Source: Arcobacter sp. (GTDB taxonomy: Bacteria; Campylobacterota; Campylobacteria; Campylobacterales; Arcobacteraceae). Taken from it: DNA of 64,000 nucleotides. This document shows, piece by piece, positions 6,298-36,303 of the stretch; positions within the stretch are counted from its first letter, which is position 1, and each line of letters opens with the position of its first letter. A program made the translations under genes and the position numbers. The stretch is from contig JAAETO010000285.1 in assembly GCA_024228275.1 (NCBI GenBank), positions 15,874 through 79,873 of the forward strand. The letters are read 5' to 3'. Below the pieces are notes generated by a model. It was not told the origin of the DNA. It did not search any database and worked only from the letters and a program-made list of their open reading frames with translations.

Positions 6298-6472
6298 ATT
6301 TTCCTAATTAATTATTGATTTATTTAAAATCTTATCTATATTCTTTTTAAAATATCCTCAAATTAATCATAACTTTATATAATAGTTTCTACTTTCTTAA
6401 ACTGTAGTAAATATAAAGTATTTTTATTAAAACACTTCAGATATTATAGATAGATTTTTTATTTCCTAAGTG

Positions 6473-6820: not shown

Positions 6821-6881
6821 GTTAAACCTCTTTTACCAATTACTTATTATATAATACAAAAAATTTAATAAAGATATAAAA

Positions 6882-7883: not shown

Positions 7884-7887
7884 ATTT

Positions 7888-8305
7888 CTATTTTAACGAT
7901 TTATTTTTTAAAACATAGAGAAAGTTTATTAAAAGTGTTGTTAATATAATAAATCCTCCAATAAAAGTAGTACTTGGTGGTAACTCTTTTAACACAAACC
8001 AAACCCAAATAGGTGCCATTACTGTTTCAATAATCATAAGTATACTAACTTTCACTAGCTGGAAGGCTTTTTGCTCCAATTCCCATTAGTACTCTTGCTA
8101 TGGGTGAAAAAATTGTTCCTGTTATTATTAATATAATGAGATTGTAATAATCAAGATAAAAACTATCAATTAATAATAAAGTTAATATTGAAGTAACAAA
8201 ACCTGAAAATGCAATTATTGGTAATCTATTAGCTTTAGTATACTTAGTAAGTATTACGAAAGCTAATGCAAAAAATATTAATAGATATAATAAGATTAAA
8301 ATATA
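7888..8305 (-). pseudogene. DMT/EamA-family transporter remnant (only about one EamA half, frameshifted)
   Basis: On the minus strand, 8305->8043 reads ...FFALAFVILTKYTKANRLPIIAFSGFVTSILT...GTIFSPIARVLMGIGAKSLPASES* and stops. The +1 frame continues VSILMIIETVMAPIWVWFVLKELPPSTTFIGGFIILT...NKSLK*. Together these give an EamA C-terminal half broken by a 1-nt indel in the A-run at 8050-8052. There is no ATG and no N-terminal half upstream. Confidence 0.6.
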
Positions 8306-8350
8306 ATATTTTTTATTTTAATCTTATTATAATCTTATTATAATAAGATT
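8287..8350. promoter_or_regulatory. cluster of four AATCTTATTAT half-sites, including a perfect 20-bp palindrome, upstream of GntR regulator 1
   Basis: aatcttattat occurs at 8320-8330 and 8331-8341. Its reverse complement ataataagatt occurs at 8287-8297 and 8340-8350. 8331-8350 (aatcttattataataagatt) is a perfect palindrome 18 nt before the ATG at 8369. Confidence 0.35.
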
Positions 8351-8368
8351 TTAAATATAGGTTATAAA

Positions 8369-9013
8369 ATGAAACAACAAAAAATTAAAAAATTAAAAAC
8401 TAAAACTATTACGGAACAAGTATATGAACAATTAGAGCAAAAGATAATTTTTTGTGAAATTGAACCTGGTACTATATTAACTGAAAAAGAGATTTGTGAT
8501 ATGATAGGAGCAGGAAGATCTCCTGTTCACGAAGCACTTTTATTATTAGAAAGAAGATTTTTAGTAAATTTTTCAAAATTAGGTATTATGATACCTGAAA
8601 TGAATTCTTCTCTTCAATTACAATTATTAGAACTAAGAAGACCTATTTTAAAAACTTGCGTAGAGTGTGCTATTAAAAGATTAACTCAAGTTGATAAAGA
8701 CAATATTGACGAATTATTATCTTGTGTAGATGAACTTAATGAACCAGAATTTTTAAATTGGCTGGATAGACGGCAAGATGTTTTATCAAAAGCGTCAAAA
8801 AACTTTTTCATATATGAAGAACTTAGAAATGTACAAGGCTTATCTCGTAGATTTTGGTATTATTATTCAAAAAAAGATGATCATAAAGTAGTAAGAAAAT
8901 TACATAAAAAAATATTAAAAGCTGTTTACAATGAAAATAAAGAAGATGCATTAAAATATGTGGATGAAATAATTAATTACTTTGAAAATTTTGTTAGAAA
9001 AAATTTAATTTAG
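8369..9013 (+). CDS. GntR-family transcriptional regulator, FadR/FCD subfamily (regulator 1)
   Basis: 214 aa. It has an N-terminal winged HTH (VYEQLEQKII...PGTILTEKEICDMIGAGRSPVHEAL) and an all-helical C-terminal domain. It is a paralog of 19239-19880. Confidence 0.8.
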   Translation: MKQQKIKKLKTKTITEQVYEQLEQKIIFCEIEPGTILTEKEICDMIGAGRSPVHEALLLLERRFLVNFSKLGIMIPEMNSSLQLQLLELRRPILKTCVECAIKRLTQVDKDNIDELLSCVDELNEPEFLNWLDRRQDVLSKASKNFFIYEELRNVQGLSRRFWYYYSKKDDHKVVRKLHKKILKAVYNENKEDALKYVDEIINYFENFVRKNLI

Positions 9014-9112
9014 TTTTAACATTACTAAATAAGCTAGCATGTAAATTAACAATCCTTTAATAAATTTAATATAAAATTTCAGCAAATTAAATAATATAAT
9101 ATTTAACTAAAA

Positions 9113-9157
9113 TAGAATATATCTTAAGTTTACATTAAGTAAACATCATGTAAACTT
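9113..9157 (+). promoter_or_regulatory. candidate operator region upstream of module 1 (17-mer shared with 20015-20031, plus a 10-bp inverted repeat)
   Basis: tagaatatatcttaagt (9113-9129) is identical to 20015-20031. aagtttacat (9126-9135) and atgtaaactt (9148-9157) form a perfect inverted repeat with a 12-nt spacer. The region lies 28-72 nt upstream of the ATG at 9185. Confidence 0.45.
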
Positions 9158-9184
9158 TTTATTATTATTAACATAAGGATAAAA

Positions 9185-9568
9185 ATGAGTACAAAGAAAG
9201 CTATTAAAACAGATTTATTTGAGTCAAGTTCACCTTTAGAGTGGGCAATAACTTCTAATAATACTTTGTATACAGCTCAAATACCAATTGATAAGAATGG
9301 TATTGTTGTAGAAGGAGGTATTGAAGAACAAACTAGACAAACTATGAATAATTTAGTACATACTTTAGAATCAGCAGGTGTTACTACAAATGAGGTCTTG
9401 CAAGTTTTGATTTATGTAACTAAGAGAGATTATTTATCAGTTGTAAACAAAATTTATGCAGAATATTTTGAAGCACCTTATCCAAATAGAGCAGCAGTTG
9501 TTGTTGCAGGTTTAGCACGAGAAAATATGTTAGTTGAGTTAGTAGTTTATGCTCAAGCAAGTAAATAA
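9185..9568 (+). CDS. RidA/YjgF/L-PSP family reactive-intermediate (enamine/imine) deaminase
   Basis: 127 aa. GGIEEQTRQTMNNLVHTLESAG...PNRAAVVVAGLARENMLVELVVYA is the YjgF/RidA pattern. Confidence 0.8.
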   Translation: MSTKKAIKTDLFESSSPLEWAITSNNTLYTAQIPIDKNGIVVEGGIEEQTRQTMNNLVHTLESAGVTTNEVLQVLIYVTKRDYLSVVNKIYAEYFEAPYPNRAAVVVAGLARENMLVELVVYAQASK

Positions 9569-9584
9569 AAAAAAAGGAAAATAG

Positions 9585-11033
9585 ATGACTTATAATTTTG
9601 AAGAGGGTATATTTATTAATGGAACTTGGCAAAAAGGTAGCTTTACTATTCCTAATATTAATCCTTCTGATATCTCTGAGAATATAGGTGATTTAGCGCA
9701 AGCTAATAGTAATCAAGTAGAAGAAGCAATAGTTGCAGCAAATAAAGCTCAACCTTTATGGGAAAAAACATCTTTAGAACATAAAGTTAATGTTTTACAA
9801 TCAATAGGAGATGAATTAATTCAAAGATGCGAAGAATTAGGTGAACTTTTAGCTAAAGAAGAAGGAAAATCAAAAGCAGAGGGTAAAGGTGAGATTTACA
9901 GATCTGGACAATTTTTTCAATATTATGCAGCTGAGGTATTACGACAAATTGGTGAAAATGCAGCTTCTGTTAGACCTGGAATTGATATTGAAGTTACAAG
10001 AGAAGCTGTTGGTGTTGTTGGTATTATCTCTCCTTGGAACTTTCCAACTGCGACTGCCGCTTGGAAAATTGCTCCTGCTTTAGCCTTTGGAAATTCAGTT
10101 ATTTGGAAACCAGCAAATTTAACAGCTGCTTCAGCTGTAGCATTAACTGAAATTATATCTCGACAAGATATACCAGAAGGGACTTTTAATTTGGTTCTAG
10201 GTTCAGGAGGAACAGTAGGTGATACATTGATTAATTCAAAAGATATTAATGCTATTTCATTTACGGGTTCTGTGGAAACGGGAAGAAAAATAGCTATTGC
10301 AACTTCTGCAAATTTTGTTAAATGTCAATTAGAAATGGGGAGTAAAAATTCACTTATAGTTGCTAATGATGCAGATATATCAGTTGCCGTAGAATCTGCA
10401 GTTATGGGAGCCTATTCAGGAACAGGACAGAAGTGTACGGCTTCATCAAGATTAATTGTAATGGATGATATACATGATGAATTTGTAGAAGCTTTAACTA
10501 AAAGAATATCTGAGTTAAAAGTTGGTCACTGTATGGAAGAAGGTATATTTATGGGACCTGTTTGTGACAAAGATCAATTTGAATCTAATTTTAAATGGAT
10601 ACAAAGAGCAAAAGATTTAGGAGGAAAATTAGTAATTGGAGGAGAAAAACTATCTTTAGAAAAAGAGGGATATTATATGTCTCCTGCATTATTTATTGAT
10701 ACAAAAAATGATTGGGACATTAATCAAGAAGAGATATTTGCTCCAATGGCTTGTGTAATAAAAGTTAAAGATTTAGATGAAGCAATAAAAACAGCAAATG
10801 ATACAAGGTTTGGATTAACAGCTGGAATTATTACTCAAAGTCTAAAAACTGCAGCAATCTTTAAAAAAGCTGCTCAAAGTGGTTGTGTTATGGTAAACCT
10901 TCCAACAGCTGGAACTGATTATCATGTTCCCTTTGGTGGAAGAAAAGAATCAAGCTTTGGTCCAAGAGAACAAGGTTCTTATGCAAAAGAATTTTACACT
11001 ATTGTAAAAACAGCATATCAAAAACCTTATTAG
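9585..11033 (+). CDS. NAD(P)+-dependent aldehyde dehydrogenase (substrate unknown)
   Basis: 482 aa. ISPWNFP, FTGSVETGRKI, the catalytic-Glu motif LEMGSKNS, the catalytic-Cys motif GQKCTASSR and EEIFAP are all present. Confidence 0.85.
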   Translation: MTYNFEEGIFINGTWQKGSFTIPNINPSDISENIGDLAQANSNQVEEAIVAANKAQPLWEKTSLEHKVNVLQSIGDELIQRCEELGELLAKEEGKSKAEGKGEIYRSGQFFQYYAAEVLRQIGENAASVRPGIDIEVTREAVGVVGIISPWNFPTATAAWKIAPALAFGNSVIWKPANLTAASAVALTEIISRQDIPEGTFNLVLGSGGTVGDTLINSKDINAISFTGSVETGRKIAIATSANFVKCQLEMGSKNSLIVANDADISVAVESAVMGAYSGTGQKCTASSRLIVMDDIHDEFVEALTKRISELKVGHCMEEGIFMGPVCDKDQFESNFKWIQRAKDLGGKLVIGGEKLSLEKEGYYMSPALFIDTKNDWDINQEEIFAPMACVIKVKDLDEAIKTANDTRFGLTAGIITQSLKTAAIFKKAAQSGCVMVNLPTAGTDYHVPFGGRKESSFGPREQGSYAKEFYTIVKTAYQKPY

Positions 11034-11041
11034 GAAAAAAT

Positions 11042-12037
11042 ATGTATAAAGATCAAATTATTATTGATGGTTTGCAATATTGTAATTGGAGCAGAGATTA
11101 TTTTCTTTCTTTAAAAAAGAGTGGGATAACTGCTGTTCACGTTACGATTGTTTATCATGAAATGGCAAGAGAAACTTTAAGTAGATTTGCTCAATGGAAT
11201 AAACTTTTTGAACAAAATAGTGATTTGATAATGCCCGTAATGAGTATGACTGATGTTGAATTAGCAAAATCTACTGGTAAAGTAGGAATTTTCTTTGGAG
11301 CTCAAAATTGCTCTCCAATTGATGATGAAATTGGCTTAGTTGAAGTAATGAAAAAACAAGGCTTACTTATTATGCAATTAACATATAATAACCAAAGTCT
11401 ATTAGCAACTGGGTGTTATGAACAACATGATAGTGGGATTACAAGATTTGGGAAGCAAGTAATTGCAGAGATGAATAGAGTTGGAATGATTGTAGATATG
11501 TCTCATAGTTCTGAAAAGTCTACACTTGAAGCTATTGAAATATCAGCTCGACCTATTTGCATATCACATGCAAATCCAACTTTTGCACATAATGCATTAA
11601 GAAATAAATCAAATGATGTTATTAAGGCATTAGCTTCAAAGGGTGGATTACTAGGTTTCTCACTTTATCCTTTTCATTTACCAAATGGTAGTGATTGTAC
11701 ACTCGATGATTTTTGTGAAATGATTGCACAAACAGCTGATTTAGTTGGTGTTGATCATCTAGGAATTGGTAGTGATTTATGTTTAAATCAATCACAAGAA
11801 GTTTTGGAATGGATGAGAAATGGTAAATGGTCAAAAGATATGGATTATGGAGAAGGAAATGCTTCAAATTCGGGATGGCCAGATGATTTACCTTGGTTTA
11901 AAGATGAGAATGGAATGGAAAATATATATAAAGGTTTATTAAAATATGGGTTTAAAGAGGAAGAAGCTAATCAAATTCTTGGTGGAAACTGGTTTAGCTT
12001 CTTAAGTGATGGTTTAAAGCCTAAAAATCTTTTTTAA
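11042..12037 (+). CDS. peptidase M19 (renal/membrane dipeptidase)-like amidohydrolase-fold protein, atypical N-terminal metal motif
   Basis: 331 aa. VDMSHSSEKS, PICISHANP and GIGSDL match M19 blocks. Where M19 enzymes carry DGHND, this protein has IIDGLQYCNW. Confidence 0.7.
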   Translation: MYKDQIIIDGLQYCNWSRDYFLSLKKSGITAVHVTIVYHEMARETLSRFAQWNKLFEQNSDLIMPVMSMTDVELAKSTGKVGIFFGAQNCSPIDDEIGLVEVMKKQGLLIMQLTYNNQSLLATGCYEQHDSGITRFGKQVIAEMNRVGMIVDMSHSSEKSTLEAIEISARPICISHANPTFAHNALRNKSNDVIKALASKGGLLGFSLYPFHLPNGSDCTLDDFCEMIAQTADLVGVDHLGIGSDLCLNQSQEVLEWMRNGKWSKDMDYGEGNASNSGWPDDLPWFKDENGMENIYKGLLKYGFKEEEANQILGGNWFSFLSDGLKPKNLF

Positions 12038-12094
12038 AAAATTAAAAATTATTTTGGGTGATATTATCAAAAATATCATAAAAAGGATATCAAA

Positions 12095-13654
12095 ATGGAA
12101 ATGTCAGATATTATAGAAAAAAAAGAAACATTGAAGGAATTAGATGAAGGAAAACATAAAGTTGATAAATTAACTTTAATCCTTAGTAGTGGTTTTTTAA
12201 TGGCTTTTGTTATTTTAGCATTGGTTGATGCAAAATTATTAAGTTCAATTGTAAATGGCGGGTTTGCGTGGTCAACAAAAATGTTTGGAGCATATTGGCA
12301 ATTTTTATTATTAGCAACATTTTTAATTGGAATTGGTTTATCTTGGGGAAGAACTGGTTCAGTAGTACTTGGAAATACAAAGGAACCTGAAATGAGTACT
12401 TTTCAATGGATTGCGATTATTCTTTGTACCTTACTTGCAGGTGGTGGAGTTTTTTGGGCTGCAGGTGAGCCTATAGCACATTTTGTTTCTCCTCCTCCTT
12501 TATATGGTGTAGAAACTGATATGTTTCAAAAAGCAGTAAATGCTCTATCTCAATCATTTATGCATTGGGGATTTTTAGCATGGGCAATATTAGGAACATT
12601 AACTGCAATTGTTTTAATGCATTTACATTATGACAAAGGATTACCTTTAAAACCAAGAACATTACTTTATCCTGTATTTGGAGATAAAGTTATACATGGT
12701 CCTTTAGGTTCAATTATTGATGCTTTCTGTCTTATTGCTGTTGCTGCAGGAACTATAGGCCCAATAGGATTTTTAGGTTTACAAATTTCATACGCATTAA
12801 ACGCTTTATTTGACTTACCAGATAGTTTCACTACGCAATTTATTATTGTTTTAATTGCTATTTGTATTTATGTAATTTCAGCATTAAGTGGTATTACAAG
12901 AGGAATTCAAATTTTAAGTAGATGGAATATTATTTTAGCAATTGGATTAATGTTCTTTATTTTTGTTTTTGGACCAACTTCATTTATTGTTGATGGATAT
13001 ATTCAAGGAGTTGGTGCAGCTATTCAAAACTTCATTCCCATGGCAACTTTCAGAGCTGACACTGGTTGGTTAGGATGGTGGACTGTATTCTTTTGGGGAT
13101 GGTTCTTAGGATATGGTCCAATTATGGCAATTTTTATTGCACGAATTTCAAGAGGTAGAACAATCAGAATGTTAATTTTAGCCGTAAGTATTTTTGCTCC
13201 ACTCATTACAATGTTCTGGTTTACTATTGTTGGAGGAGCTGGATTATCATTTGAGATTGCAAACCCTGGAGTTATTAGTGAGGCATTTAAAGGATTTAAT
13301 TTACCAGCAGCATTATTAGCTATTACTCAATCATTGCCATTACCTTTAATTACTTCGATATTATTTTTAATATTGACAACAATTTTTATTGTTACAACAG
13401 GAGATTCAATGACATATACTATGAGTGTAGTTGTAAGTGGTAGTACTGAACCAAGTCCTTATTTAAGAGTATTTTGGGGTATTTTAATGGGTATTTTAGC
13501 AATTATTCTTATATCAATTGGCTCAGGAGGAATCTCTGCATTACAATCATTTATTGTAATAACAGCCGTACCAGTGTCTCTTATATTATTACCTGCTCTT
13601 TGGAATGCACCTCAATTTGCTATTAAAATGGCTGATGAGCAAGGATTAAAATAA
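12095..13654 (+). CDS. BCCT-family (betaine/carnitine/choline-type) secondary transporter
   Basis: 519 aa and polytopic. GWWTVFFWGWFLGYGPIMAIFIARISRGRTIR is the BCCT signature (W-x-FYWxWW...FIARIS-GRTIR). Confidence 0.85.
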   Translation: MEMSDIIEKKETLKELDEGKHKVDKLTLILSSGFLMAFVILALVDAKLLSSIVNGGFAWSTKMFGAYWQFLLLATFLIGIGLSWGRTGSVVLGNTKEPEMSTFQWIAIILCTLLAGGGVFWAAGEPIAHFVSPPPLYGVETDMFQKAVNALSQSFMHWGFLAWAILGTLTAIVLMHLHYDKGLPLKPRTLLYPVFGDKVIHGPLGSIIDAFCLIAVAAGTIGPIGFLGLQISYALNALFDLPDSFTTQFIIVLIAICIYVISALSGITRGIQILSRWNIILAIGLMFFIFVFGPTSFIVDGYIQGVGAAIQNFIPMATFRADTGWLGWWTVFFWGWFLGYGPIMAIFIARISRGRTIRMLILAVSIFAPLITMFWFTIVGGAGLSFEIANPGVISEAFKGFNLPAALLAITQSLPLPLITSILFLILTTIFIVTTGDSMTYTMSVVVSGSTEPSPYLRVFWGILMGILAIILISIGSGGISALQSFIVITAVPVSLILLPALWNAPQFAIKMADEQGLK

Positions 13655-13726
13655 AAAATCTATATTTAAATTAGACTAAAAGAAGTATCTAGGTACTTCT
13701 TTTAGTGAAAAATTTGGGAGATAAGA

Positions 13727-16141
13727 ATGGGTAAAAATATTAATACTTTAGATAATACACAATTAAGAGATTCAAGTATAGTAATGGACTTAAAAAGAAT
13801 GGGTTCTATGCATCAATCAAGAATTAGTTTTACAAGAACTCTTGTAAGAAAAATGGCAAATGAAAATTGGACTGTTACAAAAACTAAATGGGATCTGTGT
13901 AAAGATGGATATGGTACTGCAATTTATGAACTTAGAACACCAAATAATATTTATAATCTAGTAATTTTTTCTAATAATATTAAAGATGAAGAGAGAAATG
14001 ATAGAGTTATTGCTGAAAAATGGGATATTACATTTACACTAATTGATGGTGAAGTTAGCGAAACTCTCTTAGAAATGTTAAAAAGTAATGTACCTTTGCA
14101 AGAAGCTGGAAGAAATACAAATCGAGCCTTAGTGCTAGCACGTGCTAATAAAAGTGTTAGAGTTTTTTCTCATATTATTGATTCATTATCAAGTGGGAAA
14201 CAACCAAATATTAAAGAAGTTTCAAAAGTTGGCTATATATTAAGAACAACTGCCGTTTACGGAAGTGGTAAATTTGGTATAAATGACTATGCTGCATTAA
14301 AAGAAAATCCTGATTTCTCTCAATCATTTTCTGCTGAAATGTGTGCTGTATATATTTTAAGACAATTCTCTTTAGATTGGGCAAATTATATTGCTAAAAG
14401 TCAAGGTGGAAATAATGCAGTATCTTTAGATAAAGATATACAAAGATTCCTTGGAATTGGTAATGCTACTGGTTTAGGAATGGCTCCATATTTAATTAGA
14501 CATCCTAAAGTTGTTGATAATTGGTTATACCAAAGAGAATTAGCTTTAAGTAAAGTATCGTTAGAAGAGATTACAAAAGAAAAATCAAAAGAATTAATAT
14601 CATATCTAAATAGAGCAATCACTCATTTAGAAGATGTTGTAACTATAAATGAAAAGCAAAAAGAATTAAATGCTCAAGCAGCTTTAGAAATTCCTACGCT
14701 TATTGAATCTATAAATGAACTACTTGGTAAAACATATAAAGATTTAATTCATAGTTCTACATCTGTTTCTTTAGAAGCACAAGAAATTCTTATTTCTTCA
14801 ATTATTGAGTTATTCCCAGAACTTGTAGATTTTCATGAAAATCATATGAGAGTTGATGAACAACCATTAGAGTTAACAGGTGTTACAATTGAAGCATTAA
14901 AAAGTAAAATTAAATCTTATTATTCATGGGCTTTAAAATATGATTTTTCAAAAGAGAAAAGTAATTATTGGTTTTGGTATGTATCTGAAGATAAAGGAGA
15001 ACCAAGACTTGGAATTAGAAATATTGATAAAGGATCGGAGTTAGAACTTCCTTTAGATATTGCAAGACAAGTTTCAAAATTAGAAAAGATATTGGCAGAT
15101 ATCTCAAATAATGAACCTATTACTAAGTTTTTATTAGAAAACCCTCAATACTCATCTATTATTAGAAGAGTTTGGACTATGGGTGCATGTAAGATGGGTG
15201 AAATTCAAGCAAATGTTTTAGATAAAGATTTTCTTCCTATGGATTTATTAAGAGCTAAACTTGCTATGTTTGGAGCGACAAAGTTTGATCCTAGATCTGA
15301 TAGATGGGTTCAAGTTACATTTTTTCAAAGTGCTCCATTATTGGATGAAATTCATAATGCAGAGTGGTTATTCCCTCAACTTCCCAAAAGTAAAGATGAT
15401 AGATTGACTGTAGAAAGTGGAAAAATATCTGTATCAAGAACAGAACTTACAACTATGTGTAATAATGCTTTTAATGCCTTAAAAAGGGATTCTGGTGAAT
15501 CAGATCTAATTTCAAAAATGGTAGTTGATTTACAAATGGTGGGACTAGGTGGTGTTAAACAATTTGTAAATGCCTTAAAATATTTAAAAAATATTAATGA
15601 TTTATCATTGAATATCTCATCTGAAGGTTCATATATTACTGCTGATTTAAATAATGACACAATTTTAGGTCATATACAAATTTTAGTTGCATATGCATTA
15701 GAATCTATTCCTAAATATGAAACTGTAACCTTAGAAATTAAAAATTGTCATAATAGATGGTTAGTATTTTCTCAAGCTTTAAGAATTGCAAAAAAAGGTC
15801 TTAATGCAAGATTCTCTTGGAATAACTCATCTGATAGTGATCGAATTTCATATTGTATAAATGCTAATGATGAATTCCCAACAGTTTACAAAAGTAGAAG
15901 TGATAATTCTAATTTAAGAACATTAATAATAGAAATTAGTAAAACAAAAATTAATAGAGAATCTGTTAAATCAGAAATTATTAGTTCAAAAACTTTAGAA
16001 AAATCATTTAATGATGCAGTTGAAAATGGTTTAGTTATTGATTTAAATGATTGGAATGATTTAAAAGAAGTTGCAAAAGCAATTTATGTTGCATCTAGTG
16101 AAACATCTAAAAATGATGCTGGTGGAGCTATTGAAAAATAA
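13727..16141 (+). CDS. large hypothetical protein (804 aa), no family recognised
   Basis: Long uninterrupted ORF in an operon-like position, with codon usage like its neighbours. I saw no TM segment, signal peptide or familiar cofactor motif. Confidence 0.7.
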   Translation: MGKNINTLDNTQLRDSSIVMDLKRMGSMHQSRISFTRTLVRKMANENWTVTKTKWDLCKDGYGTAIYELRTPNNIYNLVIFSNNIKDEERNDRVIAEKWDITFTLIDGEVSETLLEMLKSNVPLQEAGRNTNRALVLARANKSVRVFSHIIDSLSSGKQPNIKEVSKVGYILRTTAVYGSGKFGINDYAALKENPDFSQSFSAEMCAVYILRQFSLDWANYIAKSQGGNNAVSLDKDIQRFLGIGNATGLGMAPYLIRHPKVVDNWLYQRELALSKVSLEEITKEKSKELISYLNRAITHLEDVVTINEKQKELNAQAALEIPTLIESINELLGKTYKDLIHSSTSVSLEAQEILISSIIELFPELVDFHENHMRVDEQPLELTGVTIEALKSKIKSYYSWALKYDFSKEKSNYWFWYVSEDKGEPRLGIRNIDKGSELELPLDIARQVSKLEKILADISNNEPITKFLLENPQYSSIIRRVWTMGACKMGEIQANVLDKDFLPMDLLRAKLAMFGATKFDPRSDRWVQVTFFQSAPLLDEIHNAEWLFPQLPKSKDDRLTVESGKISVSRTELTTMCNNAFNALKRDSGESDLISKMVVDLQMVGLGGVKQFVNALKYLKNINDLSLNISSEGSYITADLNNDTILGHIQILVAYALESIPKYETVTLEIKNCHNRWLVFSQALRIAKKGLNARFSWNNSSDSDRISYCINANDEFPTVYKSRSDNSNLRTLIIEISKTKINRESVKSEIISSKTLEKSFNDAVENGLVIDLNDWNDLKEVAKAIYVASSETSKNDAGGAIEK

Positions 16142-16193
16142 AAAGTATAATAATTACTGAATATTTTTATAGTAATTAGTTTGAGGTAGGAAA

Positions 16194-18431
16194 ATGAAAA
16201 ATAACCATTTAAATATTAAAATAGCTGGCGGTTGGGGTGCGCTTATTTCATCAAATAAATTTTTACTAAAAGAAGGTTTTTTCAAGCCTTCTAAAACCTT
16301 GTTAAAATTAAATCAATCAAAAGGATTTGATTGTCCTGGATGTGCCTGGCCAGACCCTAAAAATAAAGAAAGATCTATAGCGGAGTTTTGCGAAAATGGT
16401 GTAAAAGCAATTGCCTTTGAAACTACAAAAAAAAGAGCTTCGAAGGAGTTTTTTTCAAAAAACACAGTTTCACAGTTAAATGAACTTGATGTTTATGATA
16501 TAACTAATCTTGGACGTTTAACTGAACCATTTTATTACAACAGTAAAATAGATAAATATGAAGCTATTTCTTGGGATAATGCGTTTAGTATAGTTGCAAA
16601 ACATTTAACTAATTTACCTAAACCTGATGATGCAATATTTTATACTTCAGGAAGAACAAGTAATGAAGCAGCATTTTTATATCAATTAATGGGAAGAATG
16701 ATTGGAACAAATAATTTCCCTGATTGTTCAAATATGTGTCACGAATCTTCTGGTGTTGGTATGAATGAATCAATTGGTATTGGAAAAGGTACAGTCTCTT
16801 TAGAAGATTTTGATAAAGCTGAACTTATAATGATTTTTGGACAAAACCCAGGAACTAATCATCCTAGAATGTTAAGTGAATTACAAAAAGCATCTAAACG
16901 AGGTGCTAGAATTGTCTCTATTAATCCATTAAAAGAAGCAGGTCTAGTATCTTTTATTCATCCTCAGGATATTCCTTCAATGTTAAGTAATAAAGCAACT
17001 TCAATTAGTAGCCATTATTATCAAGTAAAAGTTGGTAGTGACATGGCTTTAATTCAAGCAATAATTAAATATATTCTTGAAACTCATCCTTATGCAATTG
17101 ATAATGATTTTATTAGTGCTAATACTAATGGTTTTGAAGAGTATGAGGAAACAATTTTAAATAAATCATGGAGTGTCCTACTTGACGAAAGTTCTTTAAA
17201 AATGGATGATATTATCCAGATAAGTGAACTTTACATCTCTTCTAGTAAAACTATATGTTGCTGGGCAATGGGTTTAACTCAACATCAACATGGCGTAGCA
17301 ACAATTCAAGAAGTAATTAACTTATTGTTAATTAAAGGTAATATTGGAAAAAAAGGTGCTGGAGCATGTCCTGTTAGAGGGCATAGTAATGTTCAAGGAG
17401 ATAGAACTGTTGGAATCTCTGAGGCTCCAAAAGAAGAATTTCTAAAAAAAATAGATAGTGTGTTTGATTTTACAAGTCCTAGAAAACATGGTTATGATGT
17501 AGTTCATGCAATCAAAGCTATGCATAAAGAGAAAAACAAGGTATTTATAGGTCTTGGTGGAAATTTTGCGGATGCTGCACCTGATACTAAATTAACTTAT
17601 GAGGCTTTAAAATCATGTGCCTTAACAGTTCATATCTCTACTCATTTAAATAAAAGTCATTTAATTTGTGGAAAAGAAGCATTAATATTACCCTGTTTAG
17701 GACGAACTGAACTTGATATTCAATTAGGTGGGGTACAAAGTGTAACGGTAGAGGATTCAATGAGTATGGTTCATTCCTCTAAAGGGAGTAATATTCCTAT
17801 TTCACGAGATATTAAATCTGAACCAGCAATAATTGCTGGAATTGCTAATGCGACTTTAGGAAATGAAAAGGTAGATTTTTTAGATTTAATAAGTGATTAT
17901 AATAAAATTAGAGATAAGATAGAAGAAGTATTACCTTCTTTTTATTCTTACAATAAATCTGTACTTCAAGATGATGGATTTGAATTATATAATAGTGCTA
18001 AAAATAAAGTTTGGGATACTCCAACAAAAAAAGCTAATTTTTTAATTAATAATACACCGAATTTAAATTTAGAAGAGAATCATTTAGCTTTAATGACAAT
18101 TAGATCACATGACCAATTTAATACAACAGTGTATGATACAAATGATAGATATAGAGGAATTGTAAATAAAAGAAGAGTAATTTTTTTAAATAAAAATGAC
18201 ATGGAAAAACTTTCTTTAAAAGATTCAGATATTGTAAATATAAGATCATATTCTAAAGATAAAATTAAAAGAGAAGTATTTAATTTTGAAGTTATATCTT
18301 ATGATATTAGGGACGGGTGTGCAGCTTCATATTTCCCCGAAACTACACCTTTAGTATCTATAGAACATTATGATAAAAAAAGTTTTACACCCTCTTATAA
18401 ATTTATTGATATAACTATAGAAAAAGTTTAA
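16194..18431 (+). CDS. FdhF/YdeP-family molybdopterin (bis-MGD) oxidoreductase, cytoplasmic, substrate unknown
   Basis: 745 aa. NQSKGFDCPGCAWPDPK is the characteristic YdeP-type N-terminal Cys motif, and MGLTQHQHG and RGHSNVQGDR are typical blocks. There is no twin-arginine signal. Confidence 0.8.
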   Translation: MKNNHLNIKIAGGWGALISSNKFLLKEGFFKPSKTLLKLNQSKGFDCPGCAWPDPKNKERSIAEFCENGVKAIAFETTKKRASKEFFSKNTVSQLNELDVYDITNLGRLTEPFYYNSKIDKYEAISWDNAFSIVAKHLTNLPKPDDAIFYTSGRTSNEAAFLYQLMGRMIGTNNFPDCSNMCHESSGVGMNESIGIGKGTVSLEDFDKAELIMIFGQNPGTNHPRMLSELQKASKRGARIVSINPLKEAGLVSFIHPQDIPSMLSNKATSISSHYYQVKVGSDMALIQAIIKYILETHPYAIDNDFISANTNGFEEYEETILNKSWSVLLDESSLKMDDIIQISELYISSSKTICCWAMGLTQHQHGVATIQEVINLLLIKGNIGKKGAGACPVRGHSNVQGDRTVGISEAPKEEFLKKIDSVFDFTSPRKHGYDVVHAIKAMHKEKNKVFIGLGGNFADAAPDTKLTYEALKSCALTVHISTHLNKSHLICGKEALILPCLGRTELDIQLGGVQSVTVEDSMSMVHSSKGSNIPISRDIKSEPAIIAGIANATLGNEKVDFLDLISDYNKIRDKIEEVLPSFYSYNKSVLQDDGFELYNSAKNKVWDTPTKKANFLINNTPNLNLEENHLALMTIRSHDQFNTTVYDTNDRYRGIVNKRRVIFLNKNDMEKLSLKDSDIVNIRSYSKDKIKREVFNFEVISYDIRDGCAASYFPETTPLVSIEHYDKKSFTPSYKFIDITIEKV

Positions 18432-18447
18432 AAGATAACATACTTTG

Positions 18448-18481
18448 ACCCAAAGATAAACAGTAAAGGATATCTTTGGGT
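18448..18481 (+). terminator. hairpin downstream of the YdeP-like gene (possible operon end)
   Basis: An 11-bp perfect stem (acccaaagata / tatctttgggt) with a 12-nt loop. No clear T-tract follows, so terminator function is uncertain. Confidence 0.35.
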
Positions 18482-18603
18482 TAAAAACTAATTTAAAAAC
18501 TATTTAACATCGAATGCCCAAATATAAGAAGTAATTCTTGGTTCGAATTTAACTTTTTTGTTTGATGCATATAAATTTATAAGAGGGTGAAAAGCTTTTA
18601 CCT

Positions 18604-19149
18604 TTGGCAAAAAATTTAGAAAAAAAACTTGTGGAAATTAAATCAAAAATGAAAAATATCCATTCTCAAAAATTAAAATTAATAAGAGATAACAAGTATT
18701 CTATAATTGATGAACTATTGACTTTTAAAATAGATGTAGGTTTTATTGATTATAAACCAAATAATGATAAAGTTATAATTTTAAAAGAGTTTAAAAATGA
18801 ACTGTTATTTCTTGAAGAAAAAAATGCAAAAGAAGAAAATAATACTATTTTGTCATGTGGCGATTATTGTCAATTTTATGATGGTATAAAAGAATACTAT
18901 AAATATTTAGGTATTGTTGATTATGAAACAGTTCAAATTCCAGATTTTGAAATTATTCTAAGTTTTATTACCTATGGTATGGGTAAATAGGTATTACCAA
19001 AAATAATTGTTGAGAAACTAGGTTATATGGACAAATTAAAAACAACAAGAATTACTAACAAAGTTCTTAAAATAACTACATATTTGATTCGTAGAAAGGG
19101 TAGTATCCCTAAAATAAGTGATTATTTAAAAGAACTAGATATATCTTAG
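18604..19149 (+). pseudogene. LysR-family regulator remnant (effector-binding domain only, in-frame stop)
   Basis: The translation ...IDVGFIDYKPNNDKVIILKEF...FITYGMGK*VLPKIIVEKLGYMDKLKTTRI...YLIRRKGSIP resembles a LysR C-terminal domain (G-x-G-[IV]-x-x-LP motif). It is interrupted by TAG at 18988-18990. No N-terminal HTH is present, and the only start is a TTG. Confidence 0.55.
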
Positions 19150-19238
19150 ACTTATAATAACTCTTAATTTTTTTATTCAATATATTTAAGAGTTATTTAA
19201 TTATAATTTATGAAAAACTATAATGTAGGGAGGCAAAA

Positions 19239-19880
19239 ATGAAGAATAAATTAAAACGAGATAAGAATAAAACAATGACTAACCAAGTTTACGAAAAACT
19301 TGAAGATTTAATTGTATTTTGTAAAATAGAACCAGGTACAATTTTAACTGAATTAGAAATATCTGATATGATTGGAGCAGGGAGAACACCTGTTCGAGAA
19401 GCTTTAAGACTTTTAGCTAATGAATCTTTAGTTAGTATTTCACGAATTGGAATTCTAATTACTGAAACGAGTGCAACAACACAACTTCGACTTTTAGAAG
19501 TTCGAAGATCAATATTACATTTATGCATAGATAAAGCTATAGTTAGATTGACAGAATTAGATAAAAAAGATTTAAAAGAATTAATAGAATCTGTAGATGA
19601 AGTAGATGATGTAGAATTTTTGTATTGGCTGAAAAAAAGACATAGAATACTTGCAAATTGTTCTAAGAATCCATTTATATATGAAGAACTTAAGAATGTT
19701 CAAGGTTTGTCAAATAGGTTTTGGTACTTTTATGCAAAAAAAGAAGATCATAAAGATGGTCAAAGACTACATAAACAAATTCTAGAAGCAGTAATCAAAG
19801 AAGATAAAGATGAAGCTGTAAAAGCAGTAGATGAACTTATTGATTATTTAGAAGAATTTGTAAGAATCCATTCTATATAA
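19239..19880 (+). CDS. GntR-family transcriptional regulator, FadR/FCD subfamily (regulator 2)
   Basis: 213 aa. It is collinear with regulator 1 over its full length, with roughly half the residues identical by eye (e.g. IEPGTILTE.EI.DMIGAGR.PV.EAL, FIYEEL.NVQGLS.RFWY.Y.KK.DHK). Confidence 0.8.
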   Translation: MKNKLKRDKNKTMTNQVYEKLEDLIVFCKIEPGTILTELEISDMIGAGRTPVREALRLLANESLVSISRIGILITETSATTQLRLLEVRRSILHLCIDKAIVRLTELDKKDLKELIESVDEVDDVEFLYWLKKRHRILANCSKNPFIYEELKNVQGLSNRFWYFYAKKEDHKDGQRLHKQILEAVIKEDKDEAVKAVDELIDYLEEFVRIHSI

Positions 19881-19893
19881 CAAACCATATTAA

Positions 19894-19922
19894 AAGAAAG
19901 CCTATTTCTTAGGCTTTCTTTT
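19894..19922 (+). terminator. rho-independent terminator after GntR regulator 2
   Basis: A 10-bp perfect stem (aagaaagcct / aggctttctt) with a 7-nt loop, running into a T-rich tail. Confidence 0.6.
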
Positions 19923-20014
19923 AATCTTAATTATTAATTTCCCTCAATAAAACCAGCAGTAAAATTAAATCAGTCTAATATTAATTAAAAATCAAGATAT
20001 TTTTTAAGTATATC

Positions 20015-20031
20015 TAGAATATATCTTAAGT
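20015..20031 (+). promoter_or_regulatory. candidate operator upstream of module 2 (17-mer identical to 9113-9129)
   Basis: tagaatatatcttaagt lies 58 nt before the dctP ATG (the copy at 9113 lies 56 nt before its ATG). It sits inside the imperfect palindrome ttaagtatatctagaatatatcttaag (20005-20030). Confidence 0.45.
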
Positions 20032-20088
20032 ATATTTTAAGTTAGTGAAGCGTATACTTTCAATATATAAAATAAAAAAGGATGAAAG

Positions 20089-21141
20089 ATGTTAAGAAAT
20101 AAATTACTTGGTACAGCTTGTGCTTTACTATTAAGTGCAGTAACTTTAAGTGCAGAAACATGGAAATTTGCTAGTGAAGAAGCAAAAAAAGATGTACAAG
20201 ATATCTATGCTCAAGAGTTTGCAAAAGTTGTAAAAAAAGAGTCTAATGGAAAAATCAAAGTTAGAATTTATTATTATGGACAACTTGGTGGTGAAAATGA
20301 TATTGTTGAATTAACTTCAAATGGTTCAATTCAATTTGTATCAGTAGGAACTGGACATTTAGGTTCATATGTTCCAGAAGTTCAATCAATCTCGATTCCA
20401 TATGTATTAACAAATAATGAAGATGCAGCTTATGAAGTATTAACAACAAGTAAAACAATTTATAATGACTTAGCACCAAAATTTGAAAAAGCAAATTTAA
20501 AACTATTATCTATGATTAGTGAAGGTGAAATGGCATGGGGTGCAAACAAACCTATTAGAACTCCAGAAGATTTTGCTGGTCAAAAGATTAGAACATTCAC
20601 TTCAACTATTCCCGTTGAAACTTACAAAGCATTTGGAGCAGTTCCAACTCCTTTATCATGGGGAGAAGTTTACTCTTCATTACAACTAGGAACAGTAGAT
20701 GGTATGGTAAATCCAATGTACTTTATTTATAATGCAAAATGGCATATGGTTCAAAAATATATTATGTTCCCAGGTCAACAGCCATATATTGGGACTATTT
20801 CAACAAATTCAAAATGGTTTGCTAAACAAACACCAGAAAAACAAGCAATTATTAATAAAGCAATCAAAGCAGCAAATAAAGCAGCATTTATTTATCAAAA
20901 GAAAATCAATAAAGAAAATACTGCAAAAATGCTAGAAGAGAATAAAGAGTTAAAACTTATTACTTTAACACCAGAAGAGAGAAATAAATTTAAAGATATC
21001 AGTAAATCTTTACATGGGACTTTTTTAGATGTAGTAGCAAAAGCTTATCCTGATAATAAAAAAGAAGAAGCAAAAAAAGATGCTAAAAAAATATTAAATA
21101 ATTTAATTAAAGAAGTTAAAGAAGCTGAAAGTAGACACTAA
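20089..21141 (+). CDS. TRAP transporter substrate-binding protein (DctP family)
   Basis: 350 aa. It has an N-terminal signal peptide (LLSAVTLSAETW) and a DctP-type pattern (QLGGENDIVELTSNGSIQF, IRTF...AFGA.PTPL.WGEVY..LQ.G.VDG). Confidence 0.85.
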   Translation: MLRNKLLGTACALLLSAVTLSAETWKFASEEAKKDVQDIYAQEFAKVVKKESNGKIKVRIYYYGQLGGENDIVELTSNGSIQFVSVGTGHLGSYVPEVQSISIPYVLTNNEDAAYEVLTTSKTIYNDLAPKFEKANLKLLSMISEGEMAWGANKPIRTPEDFAGQKIRTFTSTIPVETYKAFGAVPTPLSWGEVYSSLQLGTVDGMVNPMYFIYNAKWHMVQKYIMFPGQQPYIGTISTNSKWFAKQTPEKQAIINKAIKAANKAAFIYQKKINKENTAKMLEENKELKLITLTPEERNKFKDISKSLHGTFLDVVAKAYPDNKKEEAKKDAKKILNNLIKEVKEAESRH

Positions 21142-21144
21142 TTA

Positions 21145-21167
21145 AAAAAGCCCTTTGGGCTTTTTTA
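21145..21167 (+). terminator. intra-operon hairpin/attenuator after the TRAP binding-protein gene
   Basis: aaaaagccc-ttt-gggcttttt followed by T's, immediately after the dctP stop. This arrangement commonly gives excess binding-protein mRNA. Confidence 0.6.
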
Positions 21168-21178
21168 AAGGAAAAATA

Positions 21179-21946
21179 ATGAAAATAAAAGTAATAGATA
21201 GTGAACTTAATAACACAATATCTCATAATGGAAAAATAGGTTTAATACTTCTTGCAACAGACCAAATTACGTTATATGAATTTGATGCAATTTTAAAAGA
21301 TACCGGAGTTTTATGTTTCCCTTCTAGGGTTATGATGGATTCTGTAGAACTTACACCTGAAGTTTTAATGGCGATAAAAAATGAATTAGCTTGCGCCACA
21401 AACACAATCTTACCAGGACTAACTTTAGATGTTGTTGCCTTATCTTGTACATCAGCTTCAATGACAATAGGTGAAGATGAAGTTGCAAGAATTATTAAAC
21501 AAAGTAATTCAAAAAGAGAGATAAAAGAAGTAACAAACCCATATACAGCAATTAAAAATGCATGTGAGTTTTTAAATATAAATGAGTTAGGAGTAATTAC
21601 TCCGTATAGTATAGAAGTAACACAAGGAATTATAGATGGTATGCAAGCAAATATCAAAACTATTAGTGCGGCGACATTTAATAATACAAATGACAATTTA
21701 GTTCCAAGTATTACCCCAGAGTCTATAAAAAATGCAGTAATTGAAATGGCAAAAGATGAAAAATTAAAAACCATTTTTGTCTCTTGTACAAATTTAAATA
21801 TAAGTAGATATATAGATGAATTAGAAAAAGTTACTGGTAAATTAATTTTATCAAGTAATCAAGTTATGGCTTGGGATATTTTAAGGTTAGCAAACTATAA
21901 AAAGCCAATTTTTGGTTTTGGTTCGCTTTTAAAGAAAGAGAGATAA
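21179..21946 (+). CDS. Asp/Glu/hydantoin racemase superfamily protein (maleate isomerase / EutA-like, two catalytic Cys)
   Basis: The start is moved to the ATG at 21179 (MKIKVID), which has an AGGA-type RBS and lies after the hairpin. The motifs VVALSCTSASM and IFVSCTNLN match the paired-cysteine motifs of maleate cis-trans isomerase-type enzymes. Confidence 0.7.
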   Translation: MKIKVIDSELNNTISHNGKIGLILLATDQITLYEFDAILKDTGVLCFPSRVMMDSVELTPEVLMAIKNELACATNTILPGLTLDVVALSCTSASMTIGEDEVARIIKQSNSKREIKEVTNPYTAIKNACEFLNINELGVITPYSIEVTQGIIDGMQANIKTISAATFNNTNDNLVPSITPESIKNAVIEMAKDEKLKTIFVSCTNLNISRYIDELEKVTGKLILSSNQVMAWDILRLANYKKPIFGFGSLLKKER

Positions 21947-21947
21947 T

Positions 21948-22499
21948 ATGAAAAATGTATTAGCAAAAGTTAATTATGTTACAGCAAAAATTGAGAAGAT
22001 AATTTTATCTATGTCTATTTTGTTGATGATGCTTAACACAACGGCAAATGCTTTAGGAAGATATATCTTTGATCAAAGTATATATTTTTCTGAGGAATTA
22101 AATCAGTTTTTGATGGTATCAGTAACTTTTATTGGATTAGCATATGCAGTTAGAAATGGAAGAAATATTCGTATGACTGCAATATATGATAACTTATCTC
22201 ATAAAAAGAAAAAGTTTTTGATGATTATAATTGCAATTACAACTTCTATGTTGATGTTTTTGTTAGCCTATGAAGCTTATAACTATGTGATGCAATTAAA
22301 AGAAATAAATAGATTAAGCCCAGCACTTCAAGTTGAAGTATACTTGGTATATATGATCGTACCTATAGGGTTTCTTATGGCTGGTATTCAATTTTTTATT
22401 AGGTTTATTCAAAATCTATTGCACGATGAAATTTATCTTTCTTTTGATGTTATTGAAGAGAAAGATTGTGATTCAACGATAGGTGATCAAGCATGTTAG
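21948..22499 (+). CDS. TRAP transporter small permease (DctQ family)
   Basis: 183 aa with four predicted TM segments. It sits immediately upstream of, and overlaps, the DctM gene. Confidence 0.8.
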   Translation: MKNVLAKVNYVTAKIEKIILSMSILLMMLNTTANALGRYIFDQSIYFSEELNQFLMVSVTFIGLAYAVRNGRNIRMTAIYDNLSHKKKKFLMIIIAITTSMLMFLLAYEAYNYVMQLKEINRLSPALQVEVYLVYMIVPIGFLMAGIQFFIRFIQNLLHDEIYLSFDVIEEKDCDSTIGDQAC

Positions 22500-23830: not shown

Positions 23831-24203
23831 ATAATAAAAAGTAAAAGAAATAAAATTTAATAAAAGTAAGGACAAAAAAATGATAAACAATTTTAAACAA
23901 TATTTAAAGAATATATAATTTTTTATAATACATCTAACGCAGTAGTAGGTAAATACGAACACCAAGATATTTTAAGTTTAGAGGGATTTCAGAAAGCATC
24001 TAAAGGGATTTAGCGTTTGATAAGTAAATAATAAAAAGTAAAATAAATAAAATTTAATAAAAGTAAGGACAAATAAATGATAAACAATTTTAAACAATAT
24101 TTAGAAAATACAGAATTTTTTGATAATACATCTAACACAGTAGTAGGTAAATACGAACACCAAGATATTTTAAGTTTAGAGGGATTTCAGAAAGCATCTA
24201 AAG
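23806..24203 (+). repeat. diverged tandem duplication (~197-198 bp unit) of the dctM 3' end, the intergenic region and the dpaL 5' end
   Basis: 23806-24004 and 24003-24203 align end to end, with about 10 substitutions/indels by eye. Copy 1 carries a decayed dpaL start (ATG 23880, MINNFKQYLKNI*). Copy 2 carries the functional start (ATG 24077). Confidence 0.9.
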
Positions 24204-25288: not shown

Positions 25289-25290
25289 TT

Positions 25291-26520: not shown

Positions 26521-26521
26521 T

Positions 26522-36291: not shown

Positions 36292-36303
36292 GATTATTCC
36301 TAT

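Follow-up and report, generated by a model that had tools for sequence, protein, structure and literature searches.

Here, we report that an 804-amino-acid protein encoded in a 64,000-nucleotide stretch of Arcobacter sp. DNA (GenBank assembly GCA_024228275.1, contig JAAETO010000285.1, positions 15,874 to 79,873 of the forward strand; hereafter the window) is, by sequence comparison, a single-chain fusion of two widespread proteins. With a probability of about 0.8, these are HomB (residues 1-557) and HomA (residues 569-804) of the homABCDER/homT operon for the catabolism of homarine (N-methylpicolinate). The open reading frame (ORF) occupies 13727..16141 on the + strand, has an ATG start and is uninterrupted. 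A 72-nt gap separates it from the end of a BCCT transporter gene at 13654, and its stop is followed by a 52-nt gap and then by the start of a YdeP-family molybdoenzyme gene at 16194, all on the same strand and just as the first-pass annotation had placed them. That annotation had described the product as an orphan that could not be assigned to any family, a view that had to be abandoned, as a search of 5.8 billion proteins yielded more than 7,750 homologues, the Pfam family DUF3726 is matched above its cut-off and both parts of the chain correspond to proteins that have since been named. NCBI already lists the identical sequence, under the name 'DUF3726 domain-containing protein [Arcobacter sp.]' (P0001).

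When 1.84 billion cluster representatives (50% identity) were searched exhaustively, 1,327 matched at E <= 1e-3, including 351 at E <= 1e-30. Full-length relatives of about 800 amino acids were found in Arcobacter, Poseidonibacter, Campylobacter lari and Cardiobacteriaceae, with the fused protein of Poseidonibacter lekithochrous being 86% identical to that of the window. Proteins of Vibrio, Aliivibrio, Shewanella, Moritella and Photobacterium match only the first ~70% of the chain, and these are stand-alone 'hypothetical proteins' of 560-580 amino acids with no Pfam domain. BLASTP aligned residues 1-557 with the stand-alone protein of Vibrio natriegens (hereafter protein X) at 55% identity (E = 0), and residues 569-799 with the adjacent 245-amino-acid DUF3726 protein of the same organism at 34% identity (E 1e-42). 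The Pfam model of DUF3726 (PF12525) matches residues 569-633 with 37 bits against a gathering cut-off of 22.1, and the isolated C-terminal domain scores 39.7 bits. The gene, which we call homBA, is thus divided on the + strand into a HomB-like domain (residues 1-557, 13727..15397), a linker that lies between the two BLASTP matches and is modeled with a lower predicted local distance difference test (pLDDT) score (residues 558-568, 15398..15430), and a HomA-like domain (residues 569-804, 15431..16141, stop codon included). In V. natriegens (locus L001), on a Pseudomonas plasmid (L004), in Aminobacter (L005) and in Phaeobacter (L007), the unfused X and DUF3726 genes overlap by 1-4 nt, so that the loss of one stop codon suffices for fusion. 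Our literature search found no paper mentioning DUF3726.

Fusions of this kind are recurrent. Cardiobacteriaceae locus L071 carries a HomB-HomA fusion at 10001-12418, within a gammaproteobacterial operon of the LysR-regulated type that has no YdeP gene, while at 6866-9424 of locus L042 a roseobacter-like HomB is joined to HomA through a low-complexity linker rich in Asp, Ala, Met and Gly. Among the best 150 cluster representatives, 74 are HomB-sized and 43 measure at least 700 amino acids, several of these long ones with DUF3726 matches and some belonging to a distant clade of 840-960 amino acids (28-31% identity). HomB-HomA fusions have arisen independently at least three times. Such repeated and independent joining is a classical sign that HomA and HomB act as one unit, in agreement with the heterodimer predicted in the published work (PMC13236597), and it lends sequence-level support to a physical partnership between the two proteins.

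The homarine operon was described by Ferrer-Gonzalez et al. (Nat Microbiol 2026) in Cobetia sp. OBi1 and Ruegeria pomeroyi, based on transcriptomics, on knockouts of homB, homC, homD, homR and homT, and on isotope labels followed into N-methylglutamate and glutamate (PMC13236597). In that description HomD is aldehyde-dehydrogenase-like, HomC is a peptidase and HomT is a glycine-betaine-type transporter whose gene in Cobetia is flanked by homB and homC; homA and homB lie side by side in 97.7% of 11,755 genomes, their products are predicted to form a heterodimer, and the biochemical function of both is only hypothesised (PMC13236597). The tested proteins were SPO3189 (HomB) and SPO3188 (HomA) of R. 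pomeroyi and ACFLL8_11500/11495 of Cobetia, with SPO3189-3192 representing homB, homC, homD and homR (PMC13236597). In the same R. pomeroyi series, SPO3186 is the BCCT gene dmdT, SPO3187 is 'comC', a sulfolactate dehydrogenase of the Ldh_2 type, and SPO3188 is described as a hypothetical protein. The gene order of a Ruegeria sp. locus (L051), namely BCCT, Ldh_2, DUF3726, X, M19, aldehyde dehydrogenase and LysR, maps one to one on SPO3186-SPO3192, which identifies X as HomB and the DUF3726 protein as HomA. Residues 1-565 of the window protein share 39% identity with protein X of this locus. The reported hidden Markov model E-values, which reach 1e-240 for homB vs 1e-57 for homA (PMC13236597), fit a long and conserved X beside a short and divergent DUF3726 protein. 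The window shares with the hom operon its content and order (aldehyde dehydrogenase, peptidase, betaine transporter, HomB, HomA, a small auxiliary gene and a regulator), the adjacency of the same two proteins with their predicted heterodimer, and the marine setting. It differs in that HomA and HomB form one polypeptide instead of two, that the regulator is of the GntR/FCD type instead of the LysR-type HomR, that a YdeP-family molybdoenzyme gene is appended, and that the host belongs to the Campylobacterota, a phylum absent from the paper (PMC13236597). Pathways for ectoine, hydroxyproline-betaine, dimethylsulfoniopropionate and creatinine had also been considered for the operon and were dropped after this gene-for-gene match.

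The same unit, consisting of a regulator, in some cases RidA, an aldehyde dehydrogenase, an M19 peptidase, a betaine transporter, X and DUF3726, recurs in more than 70 loci and is syntenic in four bacterial classes. Our comparison covered gammaproteobacterial loci of V. natriegens (L001), S. woodyi (L002), the Pseudomonas plasmid (L004, where the operon is split into two divergent halves) and Cardiobacteriaceae (L071, fused); alphaproteobacterial loci of Aminobacter (L005) and Phaeobacter (L007); 59 further, mostly Rhodobacterales, loci (L012-L070) from a contig scan seeded with Phaeobacter HomB, among which R. pomeroyi DSS-3 does not figure; and six Campylobacterota contexts, namely the window, C. 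lari (L010), Poseidonibacter (L008), Arcobacter sp. YIC-310 (L072) and two further members (L073, L074). Within the scanned set of 59, the M19 peptidase gene is present in all and the DUF3726 gene in 58, the 59th being the fusion of L042; the aldehyde dehydrogenase is found in 54 and an Ldh_2 gene (PF02615) directly after DUF3726 in 42. An orthologous BCCT gene (>50% identity) lies upstream of X, between M19 and HomB, in 28 of the 59 as well as in Vibrio and Shewanella, and a betaine ABC transporter takes its place in Aminobacter. All 4 gammaproteobacterial and all 6 Campylobacterota loci encode RidA, vs none of the 59 mostly Rhodobacterales loci. This distribution parallels that of homE, which lies beside homA or homD and was reported in 93% of Gammaproteobacteria and as missing from 94% of Alphaproteobacteria (PMC13236597), and by this analogy RidA is likely homE.

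Two arrangements outside the hom operon are of note. On pSymB of Sinorhizobium meliloti 1021 (L006, 388063-407808), positions 8139-19744 hold a paralogous module with a HomB-like protein of 27% identity, together with an IclR regulator, a 251-amino-acid protein with no Pfam match, M19, an ABC transporter (SBP_bac_8), a class-III aminotransferase, an aldehyde dehydrogenase and RidA, apparently the same enzyme logic applied to another substrate. The dgcAB-fixAB genes of V. natriegens and of P. aeruginosa are both preceded by a 'hypothetical protein plus predicted dipeptidase' pair (PMC12093977); should that hypothetical protein be DUF3726-like, M19 and DUF3726 would be linked outside the hom operon as well.

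Several points weigh against the assignment to HomB and HomA. The identity of the two halves follows from synteny, descriptions and locus-tag order and not from direct alignment to the tested proteins, and R. pomeroyi is not named among the 120 relatives listed for the Ruegeria sp. HomB query. The HomB domain of the window is 38-39% identical to roseobacter HomB, so that a shifted substrate specificity is possible. HomA was reported to carry flavin adenine dinucleotide (FAD)-binding motifs (PMC13236597), whereas here Pfam recognised only DUF3726 and the fold match is to the NAD(P)H-dependent Ldh_2 enzymes. The published survey covers Alphaproteobacteria and Gammaproteobacteria and mentions neither Campylobacterota nor fusions (PMC13236597), and neither N-methylglutamate dehydrogenase (mgd) nor sox genes were detected in the scanned part of the window. 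Finally, the ring-opening chemistry, the structures of the intermediates, the equation of RidA with HomE and the link between formate and YdeP are all inferred.

Part of this evidence bears on a different reading, in which the same machinery acts on another betaine-like heterocycle, such as trigonelline, another N-methylpyridinium compound or an N-methylated cyclic imino acid. In its favor, besides the limited identity of HomB to its roseobacter orthologues, are the GntR-type regulator in place of a LysR-type one, the extra YdeP gene and the existence of paralogous branches with other transporters, represented by the S. meliloti module with its ABC transporter and aminotransferase and by a clade of 840-960-amino-acid proteins at 28-31% identity. 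Nevertheless, every catabolic gene of the window operon is the syntenic counterpart of a gene in the Vibrio operon, with identities of 55-78%, and a Vibrio isolate with the hom operon grew on homarine (PMC13236597). Moreover, ~140-150 HomB columns are invariant from Arcobacter to Ruegeria in two alignments, which argues for an unchanged active site. We therefore consider a substrate other than homarine improbable, although not negligibly so.

The HomB-like domain itself has the hallmarks of an enzyme. Its invariant positions include many Arg, Asp/Glu, His, Trp and Tyr residues and no Cys, and two Gly-rich loops are conspicuous, at residues 179-184 (GxGKFG) and 243-254 (GxGNATGLGMAP). This conservation pattern points to an enzyme whose bound cofactor or substrate is anionic and speaks against an Fe-S protein. 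The earlier statement that no GxGxxG motif occurs was mistaken in the literal sense, as residues 179-184 (window 14261-14278) read GSGKFG and represent a family-invariant GxGxxG, albeit not within a recognisable Rossmann unit. The loop follows a beta-strand, is modeled with pLDDT <50 and resembles nucleotide-binding glycine loops. A kinase-like interpretation of it was rejected, since kinases appeared only low in the Foldseek lists (E ~1, TM ~0.1). With a deeper alignment, the N-terminal domain alone was modeled by AF2 with a pLDDT of 86.1 and a predicted TM score (pTM) of 0.88, and Foldseek nevertheless gave no fold match for this model in the PDB (best E 0.32, TM ~0.1). No family was shared among 37 HomB homologues searched with Pfam, and PDB sequence searches with the whole protein, the N-domain profile and the C-domain profile gave nothing credible; the predicted HomB domain thus appears to lack a detectable fold relative. 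In the distant clade mentioned above (P0311-P0387), a C-terminal extension of 300-400 amino acids is present, and weak DUF3726 matches were seen in this extension in 2/6 proteins tested.

Structural comparison of the HomA-like part gave a different picture. The full-length AF2 model (pLDDT 83.8, pTM 0.67) retrieved from the PDB, as its top 27 Foldseek matches, exclusively Ldh_2 enzymes (E 1e-6 to 5e-3, TM on target 0.36-0.52), including the Pip2C/N-methyl-amino-acid reductase 1wtj, AllD, YiaK, ComC and type-2 malate/lactate dehydrogenases. These matches vanished when the N-domain was searched alone, which assigns the Ldh_2 similarity to the C-terminal HomA part. In particular, residues ~566-804 share the predicted fold of DpkA (1wtj), AllD, YiaK and ComC (E 1e-6 to 1e-4, TM on target 0.44-0.52), with the N-terminal helix pair of the HomA domain aligning at the equivalent position. 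The C-domain is accordingly predicted to adopt the Ldh_2 three-dimensional fold, the comparison being that of a predicted model and not of a solved structure, and it is only in this domain that the chain has a structural match to a characterised family. At the sequence level, however, Pfam Ldh_2 (PF02615) matched neither the whole protein nor the C-domain at E <= 0.1, whereas the neighboring true Ldh_2 of Phaeobacter scores 315 bits, and Pfam on five HomA-type proteins returned DUF3726 only. An hhalign comparison of DUF3726 with the hom-linked Ldh_2 set aligned 37 N-terminal columns at the equivalent position, which is non-significant (E 0.016, probability 2.9%). The SHG motif is absent from the 804-amino-acid protein; the position that reads ASHGL in the Ldh_2 set is VGLGG in the window and FGFPG in alphaproteobacterial proteins, and the C-domain likewise lacks GTNP and DQS, two motifs that do not vary across the hom-linked Ldh_2 set. 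The domain is also ~100 residues shorter than Ldh_2 enzymes (239 vs ~335 residues), and a true Ldh_2 gene is often a separate neighbor of the DUF3726 gene. Despite its likeness in fold, the C-domain is therefore not a member of the Ldh_2 family. The hint of Ldh_2 spacing at residues ~575-700 in the first-pass annotation hence stands for the fold and fails for the sequence, and its remark that the SHG motif is replaced was correct. Taken together, the models suggest that HomA is Ldh_2-like and probably dinucleotide-binding rather than a classical flavoprotein.

These results also bear on the proposal that the C-domain is a working NAD(P)H imine reductase of the Ldh_2 type, which would convert an N-methyl-imine to N-methylglutamate as DpkA does with cyclic imines, and leave the opening of the ring to HomB alone. 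The fold match to the Pip2C reductase and other Ldh_2 enzymes is as expected for such an activity, and the true Ldh_2 gene after homA in the scanned alphaproteobacterial loci indicates that the chemistry is apparently wanted in the pathway. Yet the reduced length, the lack of the SHG catalytic histidine and of GTNP and DQS, the silent Pfam model and the marginal hhalign result all stand against it, and true Ldh_2, where present, comes in addition to DUF3726 and not instead of it; we regard this proposal as highly improbable. The separate Ldh_2 gene lies right after homA also in Aminobacter (L005 11249-12253), which likewise lacks RidA, and in Phaeobacter (L007 11384-12391). The conservation of this position suggests that the gene functions in homarine breakdown, for example in the conversion of an imine to N-methylglutamate, instead of or besides that of a sulfolactate dehydrogenase.

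Returning to the homarine assignment, we propose a pathway whose detailed ring-opening mechanism is tentative and, in our estimate, has somewhat less than an even chance of being right. The BCCT transporter would import homarine or a very close analogue, and HomBA would open the N-methylpyridinium ring between C5 and C6 to yield N-formyl-N-methyl-dehydroglutamate semialdehyde, an N-formyl enamide aldehyde. In this reaction the HomB domain would hold the substrate, and the Ldh_2-like HomA domain would serve as a dinucleotide-binding (reductant-supplying) or structural partner. HomD would then oxidise the aldehyde, and HomC (M19) would take off the N-formyl group as formate by a dehydropeptidase-like reaction on the enamide. 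The resulting enamine/imine could either be hydrolysed by RidA to 2-oxoglutarate and methylamine or be reduced to N-methylglutamate, and the reductase could in alphaproteobacteria be the Ldh_2 enzyme encoded 3' of homA. In Arcobacteraceae, the appended YdeP-family enzyme would oxidise the released formate. Renal dehydropeptidase I, an enzyme acting on dehydropeptides, belongs to the M19 family, and DpkA-type Ldh_2 enzymes are N-methyl-amino-acid dehydrogenases. The pairing of an M19 hydrolase with an imine deaminase among the neighbors of homBA chemically fits a sequence from enamide through enamine/imine to 2-oxo acid, the substrates of these neighbors being conjectural.

Isotope tracing has placed the N-methyl group, the nitrogen, C2 and the carboxylate of homarine in N-methylglutamate (PMC13236597), which means that one ring carbon leaves, presumably C6. 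The reported intermediates are C7H9NO5, C6H9NO4 and C6H9NO3 (PMC13236597). By formula arithmetic, the first fits N-formyl-N-methyl-dehydroglutamate, the second N-methyl-dehydroglutamate, and the third either N-methyl-dehydroglutamate semialdehyde or N-methylpyroglutamate. The trigonelline intermediate MFMS reportedly also has the formula C7H9NO5 (Perchat and colleagues, 2018). A Vibrio isolate with the hom operon grows on homarine without mgdABCD (PMC13236597), a phenotype for which the RidA branch would account.

Ring opening was proposed, by analogy with TgnAB of trigonelline degradation in Acinetobacter baylyi, to need O2 and flavin (PMC13236597). The two systems resemble each other in that the first step on an N-methylpyridinium carboxylate falls to a pair of proteins, that C7H9NO5 is shared among the pathway intermediates, and that an aldehyde dehydrogenase and a hydrolase follow. 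TgnAB, however, is a two-component oxygenase, whereas neither half of HomBA has a recognisable flavin domain and HomB has no fold relative; a functional analogy is possible nonetheless. No flavin reductase or flavin-dependent oxygenase domain of Pfam or NCBIfam was found in the 804-amino-acid protein, in 37 HomB or in 5 HomA homologues. The ring may be opened with O2 and flavin, or instead with NAD(P)H carried by the Ldh_2-like domain of HomA. A more far-reaching version, which we consider unlikely as a whole, is that HomB represents a new fold that dearomatises and opens the N-methylpyridinium ring with reductant from a degenerate Ldh_2-like, dinucleotide-binding HomA and without a canonical flavin oxygenase component. 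RidA, bypassing N-methylglutamate, and YdeP as a formate dehydrogenase would then complete the pathway in the microaerophilic Arcobacteraceae, with electrons recovered from the excised C6.

The YdeP-family gene (16194..18431, + strand) encodes an FdhF/YdeP-type molybdoenzyme that scores 890 bits against TIGR01701 (cut-off 582). It lies 2-52 nt 3' of homBA in the window and in L008, L072, L073 and L074, that is, in 5/6 Campylobacterota contexts, and is absent from C. lari (L010) and from 65/65 non-Campylobacterota loci, including those of Cardiobacteriaceae (L071), Vibrio, Shewanella, Pseudomonas and the alphaproteobacteria. The outer flanks differ among the five YdeP-bearing loci, indicating that the seven-gene unit travels as a module, and the restriction of YdeP to Campylobacterota marks it as a clade-specific accessory and not as a partner that defines homBA. 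Conserved linkage, the test suggested in the first-pass annotation, thus holds for the BCCT gene and breaks down for YdeP outside the Campylobacterota (5/6 contexts vs 0/65). The YdeP relatives Fdh4A of M. extorquens and PP_4596 of P. putida have been implicated in formate oxidation, and by analogy YdeP may oxidise the formate released by the pathway. That the 804-amino-acid protein might instead be a scaffold, chaperone or maturation factor of the YdeP molybdoenzyme, as was first surmised, or form a joint oxidoreductase with it, would suit the tight spacing in five contexts with differing flanks and the lack of a terminator between the two genes, but the protein or its unfused parts occur without YdeP in C. 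lari and at 65 loci outside the Campylobacterota, are always linked to M19 and nearly always to aldehyde dehydrogenase (54/59 Rhodobacterales loci), and have invariant polar and aromatic positions that look like those of an enzyme and not of a chaperone, so that this idea can be set aside for practical purposes.

The window unit comprises seven genes, all on the + strand, and was thus incompletely captured by the initial picture of a transporter-plus-oxidoreductase operon, which missed the conserved core of aldehyde dehydrogenase, M19, transporter, HomB and HomA. A GntR/FCD-family gene (8369..9013; Pfam GntR and FCD), the likely operon regulator, occupies the same position in L008, L010, L072, L073 and L074, whereas the gammaproteobacterial and alphaproteobacterial loci have a LysR-type regulator. 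It is followed by the RidA-family imine/enamine deaminase gene (9185..9568; Pfam Ribonuc_L-PSP 80 bits) and by the HomD equivalent (9585..11033; Pfam Aldedh 491 bits), an aldehyde dehydrogenase that shares 57-87% identity with its syntenic counterpart at every locus and whose best NCBIfam match is alpha-ketoglutaric semialdehyde dehydrogenase, below the cut-off. The HomC equivalent (11042..12037; Pfam Peptidase_M19 248 bits), an M19 'membrane dipeptidase' family hydrolase, and the HomT equivalent (12095..13654; Pfam BCCT 498 bits), a betaine transporter, precede homBA and YdeP.

Over the span of RidA through YdeP (9185 to 18431), no terminator-like site was found on the + strand, the first one downstream being 19889-19925. 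This absence is consistent with co-transcription of the 804-amino-acid gene and its neighbors, as judged from the sequence. Shine-Dalgarno-like motifs precede the starts of the ORF (GGGAG) and of the YdeP-family gene (GAGG). The protein is soluble, with no hydrophobic 19-mer (maximum Kyte-Doolittle 1.12), and it contains neither a P-loop nor a CxxC motif; on these counts the first-pass annotation was right. Its statement that neither gap holds a hairpin or T-tract was only partly so. The gap between the BCCT gene and homBA contains an AT-rich intercistronic hairpin with a 14-bp stem (13675-13706, + strand; -19.4 kcal/mol, z = -3.7 vs shuffles) that is unique within the window; no T-tract follows it there, and the homBA-YdeP gap has no structured feature (z = -0.3). 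The hairpin arms AAGAAGTA/TACTTCTT are kept in three related loci, those of Poseidonibacter (L008 ~9951-9978), Arcobacter sp. YIC-310 (L072 ~9950-9978) and a Campylobacteraceae metagenome-assembled genome (L074 ~6351-6384), and in all three a T-run lies 3' of the hairpin. This element might act as an attenuator or an operator, or might stabilise the mRNA.

Downstream of YdeP, a 128-amino-acid ORF with a TTG start and no Pfam match (18604-18990) stands where L008 and L072 have a gene for 139-142 amino acids with a weak Trans_reg_C match. Directly downstream, at 19239-27688, lies a cluster resembling those for ectoine/hydroxyectoine utilisation (TRAP DctP/Q/M, Amdase (EutA-like), PALP (EutB-like), M20 and M24/Creatinase_N (DoeA-like)). 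It is headed by a second GntR/FCD regulator, 59% identical to that of the hom-like operon, and the pairing of the two clusters recurs in Poseidonibacter (L008) and Arcobacter sp. YIC-310 (L072). Farther along, on the - strand at 28062-30527 and 34081-37896, genes for a NirB-like nitrite/sulfite reductase, a second Fe4S4-containing molybdopterin oxidoreductase and a fused 4Fe-4S/DmsC-like subunit are apparently unrelated to the 804-amino-acid protein.

Overall, what the window reveals is no new kind of system but a Campylobacterota version of the recently described pair of HomB and HomA, joined in one chain, and the remaining question of how HomB folds and which chemistry it performs is one already raised by the published hom system. 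Homarine ranks among the most abundant small nitrogen metabolites of marine plankton, and the operon for its degradation was genetically defined only in 2026; the pathway is now seen in Campylobacterota, a phylum not reported for it. Annotations such as 'DUF3726 domain-containing protein' and the ~570-amino-acid 'hypothetical protein' can be tied to homarine catabolism, and accessory steps are suggested, with RidA or Ldh_2 acting on the imine (a RidA/Ldh_2 dichotomy) and YdeP on formate. The natural HomB-HomA fusion offers Rosetta-stone support for the predicted heterodimer and a single-chain target for enzymology and structure determination. If ring opening by HomB without a canonical flavin oxygenase should prove true, it would represent a new enzyme class for heteroaromatic ring cleavage, for which the single-chain fusion would be ideal for biochemical and structural work.

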